Positions 1 through 6,321 of a stretch of DNA of 6,321 nucleotides are shown piece by piece. The stretch lies in IMG/VR virus record IMGVR_UViG_2675903396_000007; one strand, 5' to 3'. Origin of the DNA: a virus. Lineage: Duplodnaviria > Heunggongvirae > Uroviricota > Caudoviricetes. How positions within the stretch are numbered: position 1 is the first letter of the stretch; each line of letters begins with the position of its first letter. The notes beneath the pieces were generated by a model. The model searched no databases. It was not told where the DNA came from and saw only the letters and a program-made list of their open reading frames with translations. Made by a program: the position numbers and the translations under genes.

Positions 1-159
1 ATAGGCCGCCACCGGCGTTTTTCCGGTAATTTTGTCCAGCATCACCTCTTCGGTATGGAAATTCACCGTACGGCGGAAAAACAGCTCCAGAAACAGCGCA
101 CGAAATTTCACTTTTTGTTCGGTATAACCGAGTAACTGGCGGGTCGTAAACAATCCCAT
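1..159 (-). CDS. E: Major capsid protein, lambda gpE-like; N-terminal 53 codons only, gene continues beyond the window start
   Basis: Not in the ORF track (no stop in window). Manual reverse-complement translation from ATG at 159..157 gives MGLFTTRQLLGYTEQKVKFRALFLELFFRRTVNFHTEEVMLDKITGKTPVAAY, which aligns with the recalled lambda gpE N-terminus (MSMYTTAQLLAANEQKFKFDPLFLRLFFRESYPFTTEKVYLSQIPGLVNMAL). AAAGGA Shine-Dalgarno about 8 nt upstream on the minus strand. Gene order D then E matches lambda. Confidence 0.8.
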   Translation of the reverse strand, partial: MGLFTTRQLLGYTEQKVKFRALFLELFFRRTVNFHTEEVMLDKITGKTPVAAY

Positions 160-187
160 AAATCAGTTCCTTTCATTCAGAAATCAG

Positions 188-209
188 TCAGGCCACCGCG
201 GTGGCCTGA
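188..209. other. Perfect 22-bp palindrome (TCAGGCCACCG|CGGTGGCCTGA) in the D-E intergenic spacer; candidate RNA stem-loop
   Basis: Read directly from the sequence; lies between the gpD-like stop (219..217) and the gpE-like start (159..157). Only a weak T-run follows on the transcribed strand (ACTGATTTCTG), so it is not a canonical intrinsic terminator. I recall lambda also carrying a GC hairpin in its D-E spacer. Confidence 0.35.
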
Positions 210-216
210 TAACGTG

Positions 217-564
217 TTACGGCAGCGCCGCGTGACTCAGGGCACTGCCGGCAAAGGCATTTGCCTTTTTGTGTTCATCCACACTTTCAGGCCAGCGGAT
301 TGCCTCCGTCGCAAAGGTCCCCGACTTGTAATAGGTCAGTACCGTCTCTGTGCCTTCAAGCGGCAGTACCAGTATGCCAACTGCACTACCGGCTTTCTGT
401 CCGTCCCAGACCACCAGTTTCCCGGTAGCTTCATCCAGCATCAGGGGCGTCAGTGCCGGTGTTGCCGAGGAAATCCCGCTGCTGCCTGTGGCGGTATGAG
501 CCGGATCATTACCGGCAAAAATACGTACTTCCGCACGCTGTTCAGTGATGTTTTTCGTTACCAT
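217..564 (-). CDS. D: Head decoration protein, lambda gpD-like
   Basis: ORF-track 115 aa (coordinates include the TAA stop). Aligns along its length with recalled lambda gpD, e.g. DPAHTAT, TPLMLD, KLV.WDG, AVGIL, YKSGTF, WPE, AFAG. ATG at 564..562 preceded by AGGAGG about 10 nt upstream on the minus strand. Confidence 0.9.
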   Translation of the reverse strand: MVTKNITEQRAEVRIFAGNDPAHTATGSSGISSATPALTPLMLDEATGKLVVWDGQKAGSAVGILVLPLEGTETVLTYYKSGTFATEAIRWPESVDEHKKANAFAGSALSHAALP

Positions 565-600
565 ATTGTAAAAACCTCCTGTTGATGGTCAGCACTGACT

Positions 601-1203
601 TCATGGCATGGCCATGAGCATTTTCACGTCCGCATCACCGTCTGCTGACGTCTGTGGCACGCCACCCTGTACCGCAGCCGGTGAATGGTTCGCCATGATG
701 CGTTCAAACAGGGCGGTTGTGGATGCAGAGACCGGTTCTGCCTTACCTGATCCCGCAGCCAGCACAGCCCGGGCGCTCTCCACAGTCATTCCCGGGCAGG
801 CAGCCAGCTGTTCAGCCTGCGCCTCAGCCCCTTTTGCCTCATCCAGTGCCATGATCTGATCACGGAGTGAGGGTCCGGCATCCGCCTGCGGTGAAGCAGC
901 CAGGATCGGGCGGGCTTTTTCCACCGTCATCTCCGGCATCGCCGCCAGCGTTGCCGCCAGTTGTTCACGACCGTTCGCTTCTTCACACGCCATAATGCGA
1001 TCGGCTTCACTCTGCGTGGATGCCACCGGCTGCTGCGGTGCCGCCGCAGCCAGAATCGCCCGGGCCTGTTCAACGCTCATGCCCTGTTGTCCTGCCAGCA
1101 TCGTGGCAAGCTGTTCACGTCCTTTCGCTTCCTGGCATGTCAGGATCCCCATCACTCGCTGGTTCTCCTGCGCGGCGGCTTCCGTTGCAGTTAATTGCGG
1201 CAT
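601..1203 (-). CDS. nu3: Nu3-like scaffolding protein from an in-frame internal start within the gpC-like gene (about 200 aa)
   Basis: In-frame ATG at 1203..1201 (Met302 of the gpC-like ORF) is preceded on the minus strand by AGAGGAGGCACT, i.e. AGGAGG plus a 4-nt spacer. The recalled lambda sequence has the same arrangement (AGGAGGGCGA-ATG) at the equivalent GGRM position, where I believe the Nu3 scaffold starts. Inferred by analogy, not demonstrable from sequence alone. Confidence 0.55.
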   Translation of the reverse strand: MPQLTATEAAAQENQRVMGILTCQEAKGREQLATMLAGQQGMSVEQARAILAAAAPQQPVASTQSEADRIMACEEANGREQLAATLAAMPEMTVEKARPILAASPQADAGPSLRDQIMALDEAKGAEAQAEQLAACPGMTVESARAVLAAGSGKAEPVSASTTALFERIMANHSPAAVQGGVPQTSADGDADVKMLMAMP

Positions 1204-2106
1204 AGTGCCTCCTCTGACATTACTGTTCAGCGCCGTGGCCATCACACTGATGGCATCCGACGCATTGACTAATTCATCCGCCAGCCCGGCATCAATGCCG
1301 GACTGACCTTCAAAAACGGCGGCCTCTGTTCCCGTGACGGCATCAACAGACAGACCGGTAAACATCGCCACTTTTTCGGCAAACATCCGGCGCGCCGCAT
1401 CAATGCGCTGCTGCATGTCCTGGCGAACCTCTGCCGGTAAGGCTTCAAACTGATTGCCATCCACCTTGTGCGCCCCTGAGTAAATCAGCGTGATATCCAC
1501 ACCGGCCTGCGCCAGATGACCGGCATAGCTGACATGGCTCATCATCACGCCAATGGAGCCGATACGGGATGTCTGGGTAACCAGCCGTCGGGAGCAGGCC
1601 GACGCCAGCAGCATGGCTGCAGAACAGGCCGTGTCATTGCACAGTGCCCAGACCGGCTTCTGCTGACGGAGGCGGTAAATCATGTCAGCGCAGTCAAACG
1701 CGCCGGCGGCCTGCCCGCCCGGACTGTCAATGTCCAGCAGTACGCCCCGCACCTGGCTATCCGCCATTGCCTGCTGAAGACAGGCGACAATGCCGTCATA
1801 GCCTGTCATTCCGGAAAATGGCCGCATACCCCCCAGCCGGTGCACCAGCGTGCCGGTCACCGGCAGTACAGCAATACCGTTCACCACCCGGTAAACACGG
1901 GCCGGTCGTTTACCTCCGGCCATGTACTCGTCCGTTTCAGCCAGCATTCCGGGAGCATCAAGCTGTACCTGCTGCTGTGGTACCGAAAGACTTGCTGCCC
2001 CCATCTCGCGCCCGAGCGCGCAAAAGAAAACCCGCGCATAGGCGGGCTCCAGAAGCAGCGGTTCATTGAATGCTGCGGCAATAATGTGTGAAAGATTACG
2101 TCTCAC
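601..2106 (-). CDS. C: Head maturation protease / scaffold fusion, lambda gpC-like (S49/ClpP-like peptidase domain, C-terminal scaffold repeats)
   Basis: ORF-track 501 aa. N-terminal two-thirds aligns closely with recalled lambda gpC (AFNEPLLLEPAYARVFFCAL, NGIAVLPV.GTLV, SGMTGY.GI, FDCAD.I.R, KPVWAL, SRRLVTQT, GSIGVMM.H, ITLIYSG.HKVDGN, AGLADELVN). Start is GTG at 2106..2104, as I recall for lambda C. It is 62 aa longer than my recollection of lambda gpC (439 aa), owing to C-terminal repeats. Confidence 0.9.
   Translation of the reverse strand: MRRNLSHIIAAAFNEPLLLEPAYARVFFCALGREMGAASLSVPQQQVQLDAPGMLAETDEYMAGGKRPARVYRVVNGIAVLPVTGTLVHRLGGMRPFSGMTGYDGIVACLQQAMADSQVRGVLLDIDSPGGQAAGAFDCADMIYRLRQQKPVWALCNDTACSAAMLLASACSRRLVTQTSRIGSIGVMMSHVSYAGHLAQAGVDITLIYSGAHKVDGNQFEALPAEVRQDMQQRIDAARRMFAEKVAMFTGLSVDAVTGTEAAVFEGQSGIDAGLADELVNASDAISVMATALNSNVRGGTMPQLTATEAAAQENQRVMGILTCQEAKGREQLATMLAGQQGMSVEQARAILAAAAPQQPVASTQSEADRIMACEEANGREQLAATLAAMPEMTVEKARPILAASPQADAGPSLRDQIMALDEAKGAEAQAEQLAACPGMTVESARAVLAAGSGKAEPVSASTTALFERIMANHSPAAVQGGVPQTSADGDADVKMLMAMP
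690..1160 (-). repeat. Three to four diverged tandem copies of a roughly 150-bp (about 50-codon) coding unit within the scaffold portion of the gpC-like gene
   Basis: Protein-level repeats with anchor Met at residues 319, 372, 419 and 471: RVMGILTCQEAKGREQLATMLAGQQGMSVEQARAILAAA / RIMACEEANGREQLAATLAAMPEMTVEKARPILAAS / QIMALDEAKGAEAQAEQLAACPGMTVESARAVLAAG / ERIMANH. Also visible in DNA, e.g. 961..1002 ctgttcacgaccgttcgcttcttcacacgccataatgcgatc versus 1111..1150 ctgttcacgtcctttcgcttcctggcatgtcaggatcccc. Confidence 0.7.
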
Positions 2107-3688
2107 GGGGTGTTGTCTCCTCTTCCGGCCTGCGACTCTCCGCTATCTGCTGCTGATACGCCTGCGCTATCCACACCGGACGTGAGAGTCCGGCTTTTTG
2201 CCGCTCTGCAGATTCCCTGACCTGCTGGCGGAAAATGTCCTGATAATCCTCGCCCATCAGCGCCAGCTCTTTCTCATACGTGCTCAGTCCGGCCTCAATG
2301 CGCATCACCGATTCCTGAACCTCCTTGAGCCCGTCAATGGCCATTCTTCCGGCTCCAATCCACTCTGCCCGTGACCAGGCTGATCGCGCCTGATAAAAAT
2401 CAAAACGTGCCCGTGGCGGACGAATAATCCCCCGAAGAAGTGCCTCTTCCAGCCAGCAGGAAAACATCTGCGTGGCCAGCCGGGCCGCAATAAATTTTCG
2501 CCGCCCCATAAAATAGCGCCACGACTCATTGGCGGAGGCGCGGGCACTTGAGTAACTGACCTTCGAGTAATCACGGGACAACTGTTCGTAGGAAACGCCA
2601 AGACCGGCGGCGATATACCGCAGCAACGCCTGTTCAAGCGCAGAAAATCCATTGTCTGAATCCTGCGCAGTCTGTAGTTTCAGATCATCACCAGGGAAAA
2701 GGTGCGGAATTTTGACACCGCCCAGTGTCACGTTATTCGTGTCATACCAGCTGGAGAACTTCTCCAGAATATTAATAAGCGGATTATCTTTCTGCTCCTG
2801 TGGCGCGCCGGCGATATATTCAAAGGCCTTTTCGGTATCAAGTTCACTTTCAATCGTCGCTGCATACATCGCCTTCACTATGGCCGACTGAAGCTGTGTT
2901 GCCTGCAGGGAATCGAGCATCTTCAGCCGTTCCATGACGCTGTAAAACTGGTTGGCCCCACGGGTCTGCCCGTCCTCCACCGGCTCGAAAATATGCAGCA
3001 TGGCCGGACGCCCGGTGGGAAGTTCACGCGGGATCCGTTCCCATCGTCCACTCCCGGAGAACGGAAAATCATCCTCACAGATATGGTACGCAACGGCACG
3101 GCCATATCGATCGACCTCCACCCCGGCCCGCAGAAAACGGTTCCCCATACCGTGTCCTGGCGTGTCCACCCGTTTCGGACTCACGGCTTTAAAACGCGTA
3201 CGGAATAACTGCGTGGTTTCCGTATCCCAGACCGGCTGCACAAAGATTTCGCCGTTAAACGCATGAACGCCCACACCTTCACGGATAAATTCCGTGAACG
3301 TGCGTTTTCCTTCCACGTCGATCTCGCCAGACATCCCTTCGGCGTATTCCGACCAGGCCGCCTCCACCTCATCGACAAAGCTTTTTGCTGCGGTCTCCCG
3401 CATCCCCAGCCAGCGCCAGTTCGGACGGTAGCTGATCAGAAACATATGCCCGACAATGTGATCCTTATGCAGAGCCACCGCATTAGCCGCTATTCCGTTA
3501 TTGCGCACCAGATCATCTGCCCGGGCATTCCCCAGACGCAACGCGGGCAGCAGGGCCGCATCGGCACTCTGCGCCGGTGGCAACCACTCAGCCATTTGCC
3601 CGCCAAATCCTGCACCGCCCCCGTTGTAGCTGAGACTCTCACGAAGCGGAACGCCGTTCACATCAATCAGGACAGGCGTTCGTTTCAT
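2096..3688 (-). CDS. B: Portal protein, lambda gpB-like
   Basis: ORF-track 530 aa. Extensive alignment with recalled lambda gpB (GGG.GFGGQ, DAALLP, GNARADDLVRNNG, HAFNGE.FVQ, LFRT.F, VSPKR, IPRELP, F.PVEDGQTRGAN.FYSVME, QSAIVKAMYAATIESELDT, LLRYIAAGLGVSYEQLSR, SARASANESW.YFMGRRKF, GRMAIDGLKEVQE, IEAGLSTYEKE). ATG at 3688..3686 overlaps the gpW-like stop (ATGA). Confidence 0.95.
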   Translation of the reverse strand: MKRTPVLIDVNGVPLRESLSYNGGGAGFGGQMAEWLPPAQSADAALLPALRLGNARADDLVRNNGIAANAVALHKDHIVGHMFLISYRPNWRWLGMRETAAKSFVDEVEAAWSEYAEGMSGEIDVEGKRTFTEFIREGVGVHAFNGEIFVQPVWDTETTQLFRTRFKAVSPKRVDTPGHGMGNRFLRAGVEVDRYGRAVAYHICEDDFPFSGSGRWERIPRELPTGRPAMLHIFEPVEDGQTRGANQFYSVMERLKMLDSLQATQLQSAIVKAMYAATIESELDTEKAFEYIAGAPQEQKDNPLINILEKFSSWYDTNNVTLGGVKIPHLFPGDDLKLQTAQDSDNGFSALEQALLRYIAAGLGVSYEQLSRDYSKVSYSSARASANESWRYFMGRRKFIAARLATQMFSCWLEEALLRGIIRPPRARFDFYQARSAWSRAEWIGAGRMAIDGLKEVQESVMRIEAGLSTYEKELALMGEDYQDIFRQQVRESAERQKAGLSRPVWIAQAYQQQIAESRRPEEETTPRET

Positions 3689-3891
3689 AACCTCACTCCC
3701 AGCGGACGACGGCGACGCCGGGTTGTCCCCAGTACCGACTCCGCATCATTGATCGCCCGGTTAAGCTCATCCAGAGAAGCCGCCGTATATTCAATTCTGC
3801 GACCATCTTTCTGGACAGACACCACCCGTTTACCGGTTAATAAATCAAGGCGCGCCTGACGCAGCGCCTGCAGTTCAGCGACTGTAACCAT
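3685..3891 (-). CDS. W: Head-tail joining / head completion protein, lambda gpW-like
   Basis: ORF-track 68 aa, MVTVAELQALRQARLDLLTGKRVVSVQKDGRRIEYTAASLDEL...RRRRPLG, versus recalled lambda gpW [43 protein letters not shown]...QRRRGPAG. Same length class; GGAGGAG Shine-Dalgarno 5 nt upstream of the ATG at 3891. Confidence 0.9.
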   Translation of the reverse strand: MVTVAELQALRQARLDLLTGKRVVSVQKDGRRIEYTAASLDELNRAINDAESVLGTTRRRRRPLGVRL

Positions 3892-5584
3892 TCACTCCTC
3901 CGGACAGCTTCGCTGCCAGTTCTTTCAGGGTTGGCCGGGTCGTCTCTTCTTCCCGGGATTTTGCCAGTACAGCCAGATCAAGCTGCCAGCGTTGCACGGA
4001 CACACGTAATGCCGCGTAGGCATACACCAGGCAGTCCAGCGCTTCGTTACGCCGCTTTTTGTTATCCCACAGCAGACGCATCTTTCCTTTTTCCCACTTC
4101 TCCACCAGCTCTTCCGCCACCAGTTGCTGCGCCTCTGTCTGCGAAAAAATCTCCGGATCATCAGGAAAACGGATGGCATACGACGTGGCTTCATCCGCAG
4201 GCGTGGGATCGGCTTTCATACGGGCATAGAGAATTTCTTTTGCGGTGTCCGTTCCCACTTCACACAGATACACGCCCCGCTGATTGCGGGTTTTCGGCAT
4301 GGTGATCACCGGCTTGCCATAGACAGACGCGCCTTTTACCGGCAGCACCCGGAAAACACCGTGTTTTTTTGATCTCTGATAAACAATTTCACCATCGATC
4401 CCCCCGGTGTCCCAGCAGACACGGGAAATAGTCATTTCGGTGCCATCCGCATGGCGGTATTTTTTGTTGATCGCCGCATCCACACGTAACAGCGTCTCTT
4501 CCTCATCGGGACGCCCCATAATGATGATTTTATCCACCAGAAAGGCTTCCTCTCCCGGAGCCCATCCCCAGACATACATCTCAAAACGGTTTCGCTGCGA
4601 GTCAATGCCCGCCGTCAGATAAACCACCCGGGAAGGCACCGCAGCCGTGTAACGCACAACCTTATCCATCAGTACCTGGTGATCGAGTTTTTCGCCCACG
4701 GCCTCTTCCCAGGTCTCGCCCAGCGTGGTGTTCACAAAGGTTTTCAGGCCGTTGGGATCTTTCAGTGCATCCAGCCAGTCATAGACAATCTGTACCCAGG
4801 TGGTGAACGGACTGTACGCCGTCCAGATATGGAACGTGATGGAGCGCGGCGGCGGAATTTCATCACCCCGGGCGCTGAAAAACGTCAGACCGTCACGGGT
4901 CCACATGCCCGTGTTTTCACAGATCCACCGCCCGTTGCTCTGGTCCAGTTCAGACTGATGGATCACGCAGCCATGATGTTCACAGAGGTAGAAAACACTT
5001 TCAGGGCTGTCCTTCTCCCATTTAAGCCCAAAAGGCGTGGACTCATCGCCAAATTTCAGATACTGCGCCTCCCCACAGTGCGGGCAGGGCACATAAAAAC
5101 GCATAAAATGCGCCGACTCGTTAGCGGCTTTTTCGATCTGGCAGGTGCCTTTGATTTTAGGCGTCGAGCCGCGAATGGATTTTGGCCACACCGACCCCTC
5201 AATACGCTTATCCCCCAGCAGGGTTGGCGAGCCCTCTTTTTCGACATCCGGCTCGAACGAGGAAAGTTCGTCATAGCAGACCACGTCAACGGATTTTTCA
5301 CGGTAGTTTTTGGCGGCAGCGCCGCCCAGGCACCAGAAACCGACGCCCGATGAAAAGCGTTTCAGCGTGAGAGTATTGTCACGATGTTTACGACCCAGCC
5401 ATGGGGAAAGGTCTTTCAGGCATGGCACGTTCCGAATCGTCGCCTCCACGTGAGACTTCATAAAATCTTCAGCGGCAGAATCCGTGGGCTGAAAAAGCAG
5501 ACTGTTTCGGGATTTATGCTCAATAAAATACCCGACCACCCCCAGCAACATCTTTGTATAGCCAACACGGGCAGATTTAATCAG
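3875..5584 (-). CDS. A: Terminase large subunit, lambda gpA-like; 5' end missing (interrupted by the N-run), C-terminal about 569 codons intact
   Basis: ORF-track 606 aa, but residues upstream of the Ns are a frame artefact. From LIKSARVGYTKMLLGV (Walker A-like region, immediately 3' of the gap) to the stop, the protein is colinear and highly similar to recalled lambda gpA (KSARVGYSKMLLGV, KKHRDNTLT.KRF, GFWCLGG.AAKNYREKSVDV, SPT.LGDKRIEGSVWPKSIRGSTPK, HFMRF.V.CPHCGE.QYLKFGD, FYLCEH, HIWTAYSPFTTWVQIV, FVNTTLGETWE, LTAGIDSQ, VWGWGPGEE, ISR.CWDTGGID, YGKPV, WD.KKRRNEALDC). Confidence 0.95.
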   Translation of the reverse strand: MIKSARVGYTKMLLGVVGYFIEHKSRNSLLFQPTDSAAEDFMKSHVEATIRNVPCLKDLSPWLGRKHRDNTLTLKRFSSGVGFWCLGGAAAKNYREKSVDVVCYDELSSFEPDVEKEGSPTLLGDKRIEGSVWPKSIRGSTPKIKGTCQIEKAANESAHFMRFYVPCPHCGEAQYLKFGDESTPFGLKWEKDSPESVFYLCEHHGCVIHQSELDQSNGRWICENTGMWTRDGLTFFSARGDEIPPPRSITFHIWTAYSPFTTWVQIVYDWLDALKDPNGLKTFVNTTLGETWEEAVGEKLDHQVLMDKVVRYTAAVPSRVVYLTAGIDSQRNRFEMYVWGWAPGEEAFLVDKIIIMGRPDEEETLLRVDAAINKKYRHADGTEMTISRVCWDTGGIDGEIVYQRSKKHGVFRVLPVKGASVYGKPVITMPKTRNQRGVYLCEVGTDTAKEILYARMKADPTPADEATSYAIRFPDDPEIFSQTEAQQLVAEELVEKWEKGKMRLLWDNKKRRNEALDCLVYAYAALRVSVQRWQLDLAVLAKSREEETTRPTLKELAAKLSGGVNGYSR

Positions 5585-5640
5585 NNNNNNNNNNNNNNNN
5601 NNNNNNNNNNNNNNNNNNNNNNNNNNNNNNNNNNNNNNNN
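5585..5640. other. Run of 56 N: assembly or scaffold gap of unknown true size
   Basis: Directly visible. By analogy with lambda the missing stretch should encode the last dozen or so Nu1 codons and roughly 70 N-terminal gpA codons, i.e. considerably more than 56 nt. Confidence 0.95.
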
Positions 5641-5642
5641 AG

Positions 5643-6119
5643 TAAATCCGGTAATTTATCCCCTGCCCGCGCACACTGATTTGCCCCCTTAGCAATAAGG
5701 GTTTTCAGATGGTCAAGATGGCGCGGTGTTAAATCAGGAAACTGTCGCTGCATGGATAAAGGGATGGAATCAAGCGTACTGGATAACGCCATTGCCAGCT
5801 TACTGAGGGCAAAAATACAGAACCCGGTGTCAATAAGTTTTCCTTTTGACACCTCATTTTTTAACTGCTGTGTAACAGCCTGTTCTGCTGTCAGTTCCCA
5901 TCTGGCAATAAGCAATTTCTCCTCATAGTCGTCTTCGCTATCGCCATCAGGCACATCGTTTTTACTTCTCCTCAGATACGATATGTAAAAATCGCGCCAG
6001 GCATCCAGATCCAGTTGCCCTCGCTTATTCGATATCGGGGCACCCGGCAATTTCTGCAATCTGCGAAGCTGGCGATCGGTCAGACTTAAATGCCTGGCAA
6101 CTTCAGTCTGCGTAGCCAC
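5643..6119 (-). CDS. nu1: Terminase small subunit, lambda Nu1-like; 3' end missing (runs into the N-run)
   Basis: ORF-track 180 aa, of which the first 159 residues are real sequence. C-terminal half aligns with recalled lambda Nu1 (TGFCIFALSKLA....LD.IPLSMQRQFPDL..RHLDHLK versus TAFCTFVLSRIA....LDGLPLSVQRRFPELENRHVDFLK). N-terminal region resembles the Nu1 winged-HTH segment. GTG start at 6119 with GAGGTGAGGA immediately upstream and an in-frame stop 1 codon upstream. Sits directly downstream of cos, as in lambda. Confidence 0.88.
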
Positions 6120-6154
6120 TCCTCACCTCGCAAAAACTCTCACCTCACAATCAC

Positions 6155-6270
6155 AACAAAACCGGTCATGTCCGGTTTACATGTCTGTTTTTTGTTCATG
6201 TCCGGTTCACAGAAGACCTGTTTTTATATTTTTCATATAGTTAACTTGAAGAGAAACCGGACATGGATCC
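6155..6270. promoter_or_regulatory. cosB-like terminase small-subunit binding region: three copies of an 11-bp element flanking an AT-rich spacer
   Basis: CATGTCCGGTT at 6167..6177 and 6197..6207 (direct) and its reverse complement AACCGGACATG at 6255..6265 (inverted), with a 47-bp AT-rich spacer (6208..6254) between the second and third copies. This mirrors the lambda cosB layout cosN-R3-I1(IHF)-R2-R1-Nu1. Assignment as R sites is inference. Confidence 0.6.
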
Positions 6271-6302
6271 CGGAAAATTTTCATAAATAGCGAAAACCCG
6301 CG

Positions 6303-6314
6303 AGGTCGCCGCCC
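6303..6314 (-). other. cosN: 12-nt cohesive-end site (GGGCGGCGACCT on the minus strand)
   Basis: Reverse complement of 6270..6321 reads GGTTACGGGGCGGCGACCTCGCGGGTTTTCGCTATTTATGAAAATTTTCCGG, which matches the lambda cos junction as I recall it (right-end ...GGTTACG, then left-end GGGCGGCGACCTCGCGGGTTTTCGCTATTTATGAAAATTTTCCGG). Confidence 0.85.
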
Positions 6315-6321
6315 CGTAACC

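Follow-up and report, generated by a model that had tools for sequence, protein, structure and literature searches.

A triple scaffold module in the protease/scaffold gene of a phage-21-type lambdoid prophage, and its copy number among relatives

Introduction

The Nu3 protein of phage lambda is an essential scaffolding protein that self-associates, interacts with C, B and E, and is removed by the C protease (PMC3224144; PMC10695390). Portal incorporation requires Nu3, which is then listed as degraded by C (PMC3224144, Table 2). In phage 21, the corresponding genes are genes 5 and 6, and the triple repeat treated in this report is already known there; it has been on record for that phage since the early 1990s. 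Accession M81255.1, which we take to be Smith & Feiss 1993, annotates the nested gene 6 (200 aa), a ribosome-binding site (RBS) for gene 6 and three repeat regions, the Tri1 box, the Tri box and the Tri3 box, with the remark "function unknown; putative". The complete phage 21 genome of 2022, OL657228.1 (Feiss et al. 2022), annotates a "capsid protease/scaffolding protein" and a "scaffolding protein".

The gene studied here is a close copy of the phage 21 gene. The two share 98.7% nucleotide identity over the whole gene with 0 indels, and the predicted nested products of 501 and 200 aa and the RBS are as in phage 21. Six amino acids differ in gp5; one stretch, for example, reads ALFERIMA here and AMFEHFMA in phage 21. 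In lambda gpC/gpNu3, a single module follows a linker of ∼48 aa and the scaffold has about 131 aa counted from Met309, whereas here three modules follow a 12-aa lead in a scaffold of 200 aa. Gene order, the module, the C-terminal motif, the Shine-Dalgarno sequence and the position of the internal ATG are all shared with lambda, and the S49 protease domain is 58% identical overall.

Results

The head-gene operon

The DNA analyzed, called the window below, is a stretch of 6,321 nucleotides (IMG/VR record IMGVR_UViG_2675903396_000007). By its sequence it reads as the head-gene operon of a phage-21-type lambdoid prophage that is identical to one in E. coli O157:H7. In the ORF list, all large open reading frames (ORFs) are on the minus strand and follow the order of the lambda head operon, and positions 1-5584 are 96.9% identical to phage 21. 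As in the lambda gpC type, the gpC-like gene has the portal gene on one side and the decoration and major capsid genes on the other. The genes and ORFs are as follows.

5577-6119, minus strand: small terminase subunit (ORF list)
3875 to about 5695, minus strand: large terminase subunit, broken by a run of N at 5585-5640
3685-3891, minus strand: W-like gene (ORF list)
2096-3688, minus strand: portal gene (ORFs and phage 21 annotation)
601-2106, minus strand: homologue of gpC and phage 21 gene 5, a prohead protease with a fused scaffold domain, 501 aa
217-564, minus strand: D/shp-like decoration gene (ORFs and phage 21 annotation)
below position 170, minus strand: major capsid gene, start only (ORFs and phage 21 annotation)
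608-859, 961-1194, 995-1306 and 1020-1205, plus strand: opposite-strand ORFs over the repeat (ORF list)

What lies upstream of the head genes is not related to its phage 21 counterpart. DNA similarity to phage 21 is absent across the small terminase gene and the cosB region (5641-6273) and resumes at cosN (6274-6321), so that a mosaic junction lies at the boundary of the small and large terminase subunits (window 5585-6273). Between the small terminase start and cosN, CATGTCCGG occurs three times, at 6167-6175 and 6197-6205 on the plus strand and at 6257-6265 on the minus strand. These two direct copies and one inverted copy are candidate terminase-binding R boxes, in a cosB unlike that of phage 21. 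The cosN sequence GGGCGGCGACCT stands at 6299-6314 on the minus strand, at the right end of the window. At the other end, a perfect 9-bp stem, TCAGGCCAC-CGCG-GTGGCCTGA, is followed by a T-rich tail (188-209, minus strand) between the decoration and major capsid genes, and mEp237 has an annotated rho-independent terminator at the matching position.

The protease domain and the nested gene 6

The gpC-like gene starts with GTG and overlaps the end of the portal gene by 11 nt. Its product matched Pfam Peptidase_S49 (PF01343) with an E value of 7.2e-35 (120.7 bits, cut-off 24.9), and PHROG 53, head maturation protease, end to end with an E value of 3e-228. Ser162 and Lys214 were invariant in an alignment of eight phages, and Ser162 presumably corresponds to the catalytic Ser166 of lambda. 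The features in this part of the gene are listed below.

1228-1671, minus strand: S49 peptidase domain, aa 146-293 (Pfam)
1208-1214, minus strand: Shine-Dalgarno sequence GAGGAGG, 4 nt upstream of the gene 6 ATG; the M81255 RBS maps to 1210-1214
601-1203, minus strand: gene 6, Nu3 analogue, scaffolding protein of 200 aa, in frame from Met302 (annotated in M81255 and OL657228)

A Shine-Dalgarno sequence and an internal ATG stand at homologous positions in the window (caGAGGAGGcactATG), in lambda (cAGGAGGgcgaATG, Met309) and in Gifsy-1. By these positions, the stretch that a preliminary description of this DNA had flagged would be the C-terminal part common to gene 5 and the predicted nested gene 6 product.

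The lambda record J02459 (locus L003; 1900 vs 2110) annotates nu3 with 201 aa from Met239, which lacks an upstream Shine-Dalgarno sequence. Met309 has AGGAGG upstream, is homologous to the annotated gene 6 start of phage 21 and would give a 131-aa product. Judged by these signals, the old lambda nu3 annotation looks too long. OL657228 also marks two antisense "CII binding sites" inside gene 6, at 951-964 and 1185-1198 on the plus strand. These are matches to the TTGY-N6-TTGY pattern only, and one of them falls within repeat copy 2.

Three modules and a truncated unit

The scaffold part contains three copies of a module of ∼40 residues and a terminal partial unit, with a period of 47-52 codons.

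1045-1167, minus strand: repeat copy 1, aa 314-354, ENQRVMGILTCQEAKGREQLATMLAGQQGMSVEQARAILAA, HMM score 77.5; overlaps the Tri1 box (1033-1136)
1009-1044, minus strand: inter-copy linker 1, aa 355-366, evolving fast and predicted to be poorly ordered; pLDDT drops at gp6 residues 58-62
895-1008, minus strand: repeat copy 2, aa 367-404, EADRIMACEEANGREQLAATLAAMPEMTVEKARPILAA, HMM score 60.4; overlaps the Tri box (886-996)
868-894, minus strand: inter-copy linker 2, aa 405-413 (structure model and divergence comparison)
754-867, minus strand: repeat copy 3, aa 414-451, RDQIMALDEAKGAEAQAEQLAACPGMTVESARAVLAA, HMM score 56.8; overlaps the Tri3 box (742-855)
715-753, minus strand: linker 3, aa 452-464, from copy 3 to the terminal motif; pLDDT below 50 at gp6 residues 153-159
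679-714, minus strand: terminal partial unit / conserved C-terminal motif, aa 465-476, ALFERIMANHSP
604-678, minus strand: scaffold C-terminal tail, aa 477-501, ending in MLMAMP

All three copies fit the conserved scaffold module pattern E-x-x-R-x-x-x-I-L-x-x-x-E-A-x-G-R-E...L-A...M-S/T-V-E-x-A...L-A-A, at 57-78 bits per copy with the module HMM, and PHROG 8399, "head scaffolding protein", was matched in three stretches. Once mapped to the window, the Tri boxes of M81255 coincide with the three HMM-defined modules. Local alignment of unit to unit gave scores of 87-101, compared with about 26 ± 5 for shuffled sequences (z 11.6-15.3), and none of 1000 shuffles reached the observed score.

The fourth element required a different comparison. 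When the "partial copy" ALFERIMA (aa 465-472) was aligned alone to the units, the match was not significant (z below 0). With the linker included, the stretches that follow copies 1 and 3, QPVASTQSEADRIMA and EPVSASTTALFERIMA respectively, matched each other with z 6.1 (2 of 5000 shuffles), which indicates that the array ends in a truncated unit. The F-x-x-x-M...P motif of the terminal unit is present also in single-copy relatives. From the sequence, the array can best be described as one head (ENQRVMGILT) and, after it, three units that each consist of body, linker and x-x-R-I-M-A head; the "partial copy" is the head of the third unit.

Shuffle tests, module HMM and linker-included alignment thus agree on the content given by the preliminary description, three full copies and a partial one in a gpC/Nu3-like gene. 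Its period of about 50 codons lies within the measured range, and the one full module that it gives for lambda gpC was borne out by the HMM, which counts one in lambda and three here.

Tandem Repeats Finder, run on the whole window, reported nothing in the repeat region because the copies are too diverged in DNA. They share 59-67% nucleotide identity, and the longest exact in-register run is 8-9 nt.

Origin of the array

Copies 2 and 3 lack three residues (MGI) at the head/body junction, where they read ADR---IMA-CEEA compared with ENQRVMGILT-CQEA in copy 1. Copy 1 appears from this alignment to be the ancestral-type, full-length module. Single-copy genes have two short heads of the form x-x-R-h-M flanking the module body, as in lambda (ENSRIMGIL ... 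ALDRLMQ), and unequal recombination between two such heads would create new units. The array probably arose in this way. A head-to-head exchange of E-N-x-R-I-M-G-I-L with x-x-R-h-M is expected to give the three-residue shortening seen in copies 2 and 3, and the similarity of the post-copy linkers (z 6.1, above) fits such an origin.

The array is not an assembly product

The preliminary description had left room for a mis-assembly, in which the repeat of a draft sequence would have been wrongly expanded, and the window does contain an N gap (5585-5640). This gap is 4.4 kb from the repeat. It corresponds to 221 bp of ordinary sequence in the closed chromosome of E. coli O157:H7 LSU61 (NZ_CP038336.1), which is collinear on both sides of it and matches the 603-nt gene 6 region of the window at 100%. 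The same region was found at full length in 1863 of 5426 complete E. coli genomes, in up to five copies per genome. Phage 21 gives the same sequence by Sanger/dideoxy and by Illumina sequencing (PMC9119081). With copies so diverged and exact in-register runs of at most 9 nt, an assembler could not have miscounted them. The divergence of the copies, the complete genomes, the two sequencing chemistries and the collinear gap together rule this explanation out, and we leave it practically no probability.

Copy number among relatives

Copies were counted with the module HMM in 160 related loci and in eight reference phage genes. A word-indexed protein search for the 200-aa tail yielded gene fragments for the most part, and the counts were taken from locus retrieval and an exhaustive profile search.

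1 copy: lambda, mEp237/phi80-type, Vibrio HY01, Rhodobacter RcDora, Burkholderia BcepNazgul, chi-like Salmonella SP-030 and almost all other Proteobacterial loci
2 copies: L127, L152, L016
3 copies: phage 21 group (E. coli, Shigella, E. albertii), Gifsy-1 and other Salmonella-type prophages, Trabulsiella, Providencia
4 copies: L140, L142-146, L148, a lineage present in 105 complete E. coli genomes

The exhaustive profile search of 1.84 billion representative proteins gave 392 matches. The best 150 of these 392 included 144 new representatives, 135 of them with one module. In this survey, the scaffold part of S49 protease-scaffold genes from Proteobacterial phages has one strongly conserved element, the module, which normally occurs once, and one copy is both the ancestral and the usual state.

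One of the nearest known relatives is STM2605 of Gifsy-1 in Salmonella. This protein and related enterobacterial proteases have three copies in the same order, a short linker and an internal start. STM2605 is 67% identical to the window protein, and its linkers and C-terminal tail have diverged. Copy 2 of the window is 79% identical to copy 2 of Gifsy-1, compared with 61% to its own neighbours. Throughout the three-copy clade, copies at the same position in different phages are more alike than adjacent copies in one phage. This position-for-position orthology implies that the triplication predates the split of the three-copy lineages.

Among the relatives, copy number varies from 1 to 4, and in-register recombination between copies is what changes it. 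L127, elsewhere about 97-99% identical to the window, has a chimeric copy 1/copy 2 with its junction inside the shared CGTGAACA; the change is an in-frame loss of 150 bp by recombination between copies. Copies 2-4 of the four-copy lineage share 79-94% identity at the protein level and up to 91% at the DNA level, which points to recent amplification or homogenization. L116 has a 19-residue deletion inside copy 2.

L127 and the four-copy lineage speak for another reading, in which the array expanded recently in this strain alone and could change how this prophage assembles. The positional orthology refutes that reading. Each of the three window copies is orthologous to the copy at the same position in Gifsy-1, Trabulsiella and Salmonella-type prophages at about 65-70% protein identity, synonymous sites are saturated between the window copies and these orthologues, and the window sequence is 100% identical to a common O157:H7 prophage. 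The "tandem expansion" of the preliminary description therefore holds in the evolutionary sense, as an old triplication, and not as a recent event in this genome, given the positional orthology with Gifsy-1, Trabulsiella and Providencia. That description had also named a three-copy arrangement universal among related phages as the mark of conserved architecture. Within the clade this is largely what was found, while the relatives taken overall have 1 to 4 copies.

Several loci stood apart in the survey. L125 ends inside copy 3, and L151 (viral_contigs) has a 291-aa ORF only, with no module. These two and L128, truncated or frameshifted loci of the 21 type, are presumably decaying prophages. 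P0140, a stand-alone, unrelated protein of 198 aa, has duplicated the full-length module independently. The single-module relative P0170 has an acidic tandem repeat, DAESNEDED x6, in its linker. The two proteins indicate that linker and module are both expandable in other lineages. L022-L029 are near-identical lambda-type gpC loci in assemblies of organisms that are unrelated, among them Kitasatospora, Shewanella, Oceanobacillus, Leeuwenhoekiella and an Akkermansia MAG. Three of their contigs are about 48.4-48.5 kb long and several have very low coverage, and these loci look like contamination of the assemblies by lambda control DNA.

Selection on the copies and length of the linkers

dN/dS was calculated against Gifsy-1, two Salmonella-type loci, Trabulsiella, Providencia and two E. 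coli/Shigella loci. Where dS was estimable, the three copies together had values of 0.04-0.18, compared with 0.09-0.17 for the protease domain; copy 3 was somewhat more relaxed than copies 1 and 2. By these low values, all three copies are under purifying selection and are kept as functional sequence. In distant comparisons, the inter-copy linkers had 2-4 times the non-synonymous divergence of the copies. Linker 3 has 8-27% amino-acid identity to distant three-copy relatives (Gifsy-1, L133, L147, L014, L015) and 85-92% to close 21-like loci.

The first module follows the end of the protease domain after 17 aa here and after 17-24 aa in every multi-copy protein. In 70 distinct single-copy proteins this distance is 27-72 aa with a median of 56, which upholds the shortened upstream linker of the preliminary description. 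By this comparison, most of the long, low-complexity linker found upstream of the single module in other genes is gone from the multi-copy genes. Measured from the protease end to the last module, two-copy proteins span 105-136 aa (105-113 aa in three of four cases) vs 68-113 aa in single-copy proteins, and proteins with three or four copies span 150-199 aa. Beyond the last module, 41-60 aa follow at any copy number, one truncated ORF excepted. The association between linker and copy number may reflect one or two events, because most multi-copy genes form one clade.

Predicted structure and family searches

AlphaFold2 was run on the 200-aa gene 6 product with an alignment of 23 sequences. It gave three helical modules, with mean pLDDT of about 75-82 in blocks of 10 residues, low-confidence linkers and a poorly predicted C-terminal tail (pTM 0.27). 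In the model, the product would thus be laid out as beads on a string. The preliminary description had suggested a helical prediction for the repeat unit, and helical modules are what AlphaFold2 gives, but the two models put the helix breaks within one module at different places, and no fold is assigned.

Searches with the sequence and the model returned little. Foldseek against the PDB with the 200-aa model gave nothing below an E value of 3.9, fold searches found generic helical matches only, and the PDB sequence search found no match. Pfam has no family for the module, and NCBIfam gave nothing for the tail. The L-A-x-x-P-G-M-T-V-E-x-A-R-x-x-L-A-A half of the module resembles a helix-hairpin-helix in shape only. 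With Pfam HhH (PF00633), copy 3 was best at 18.7 bits (E 0.0016), below the gathering threshold of 24, and copies 1 and 2 had no match; membership of this family was rejected, as no copy reached its threshold.

The scaffolding protein of phage P22 has a C-terminal helix-turn-helix domain that binds coat protein, a short helical hairpin and flexible segments, and it serves here as a functional analogy only. The likeness lies in a helical hairpin near the C-terminus of the scaffold joined through flexible segments. A P22-type coat-binding helix-turn-helix was rejected as an assignment, as no structural match to the solved domain was found. Medina and colleagues reportedly found in 2011 that lambda gpNu3 is intrinsically disordered, and if so, the folded modules may form only on binding.

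Discussion

Taken as a whole, the data are very probably best explained by an old and real triplication of the Tri box, ending in a truncated fourth unit, in the protease/scaffold genes of phage-21-type phages, with a multivalent scaffold as its proposed product. The finding itself is ordinary, since the Tri boxes are annotated in phage 21 and occur in about one third of complete E. coli genomes. As stated in the preliminary description, the triple repeat matters little, since it is known and belongs to an E. coli prophage that is very common. Some modest points come from the survey: a single copy is the ancestral state, the array is ancient and maintained, two- and four-copy alleles come from recombination, and linker length is traded against copy number.

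By analogy with lambda gpC/gpNu3, the gene 6 protein would act as chaperone for the major capsid protein, gp7, as it enters the procapsid. Through the C-terminus that they share, the gp5 protease would be carried into the shell as well, and would then destroy both. The module would be the interaction unit of the scaffold, for self-association and/or for contact with capsid or portal. Three modules on flexible linkers would then make a multivalent, longer-reaching scaffold in place of the lambda-type disordered spacer. That extra copies add scaffold valency or reach is our best guess, drawn from the analogy. The natural two-copy recombinant L127 suggests that three copies may not be strictly required.

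The main rival to the multivalent scaffold is that the extra modules have no binding function and form a structured spacer, which takes the place of the disordered linker and determines how far protease and scaffold reach inside the shell. Linker length is inversely related to copy number, as such a spacer would have it; the two-copy span to the last module is close to or somewhat above the single-copy span; and linkers are elastic in relatives, as the acidic repeat of P0170 illustrates. We nevertheless hold this to be rather unlikely. The motifs E-A-x-G-x-E, L-A, M-T/S-V-E-x-A and L-A-A are conserved in every copy and dN/dS is as low as in the protease domain, which exceeds what a spacer needs, and the spans of three- and four-copy proteins are far above any single-copy span. 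It is more improbable still that the modules, instead of contacting capsid protein or one another, are docking or cleavage units for protease or portal, by which gp5 would recognize gp6 when degrading it or the portal protein gp4 would be recruited. The dual role of lambda Nu3 in portal incorporation and as a substrate of C (Introduction) would agree with this, and the inter-module linkers, exposed in the model, would be natural cleavage sites. Against it, phages whose portals differ widely all conserve the module, and the sequence bears no mark of a cleavage motif.

The multivalent scaffold can be carried one step further, to a proposal that we offer as a tentative possibility. The module, uncatalogued in that it has no Pfam family, would be the S49-linked core unit of the scaffold; its copy number, 1-4, would be driven by recombination and coupled inversely to the disordered linker; and the alleles would show that valency or reach tunes the efficiency or fidelity of procapsid assembly. 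If this is true, the prophage alleles with one, two, three and four copies would be a ready-made series on scaffold valency or reach. Such an allelic series would give a cheap genetic handle on the importance of module number for a T=7 shell.
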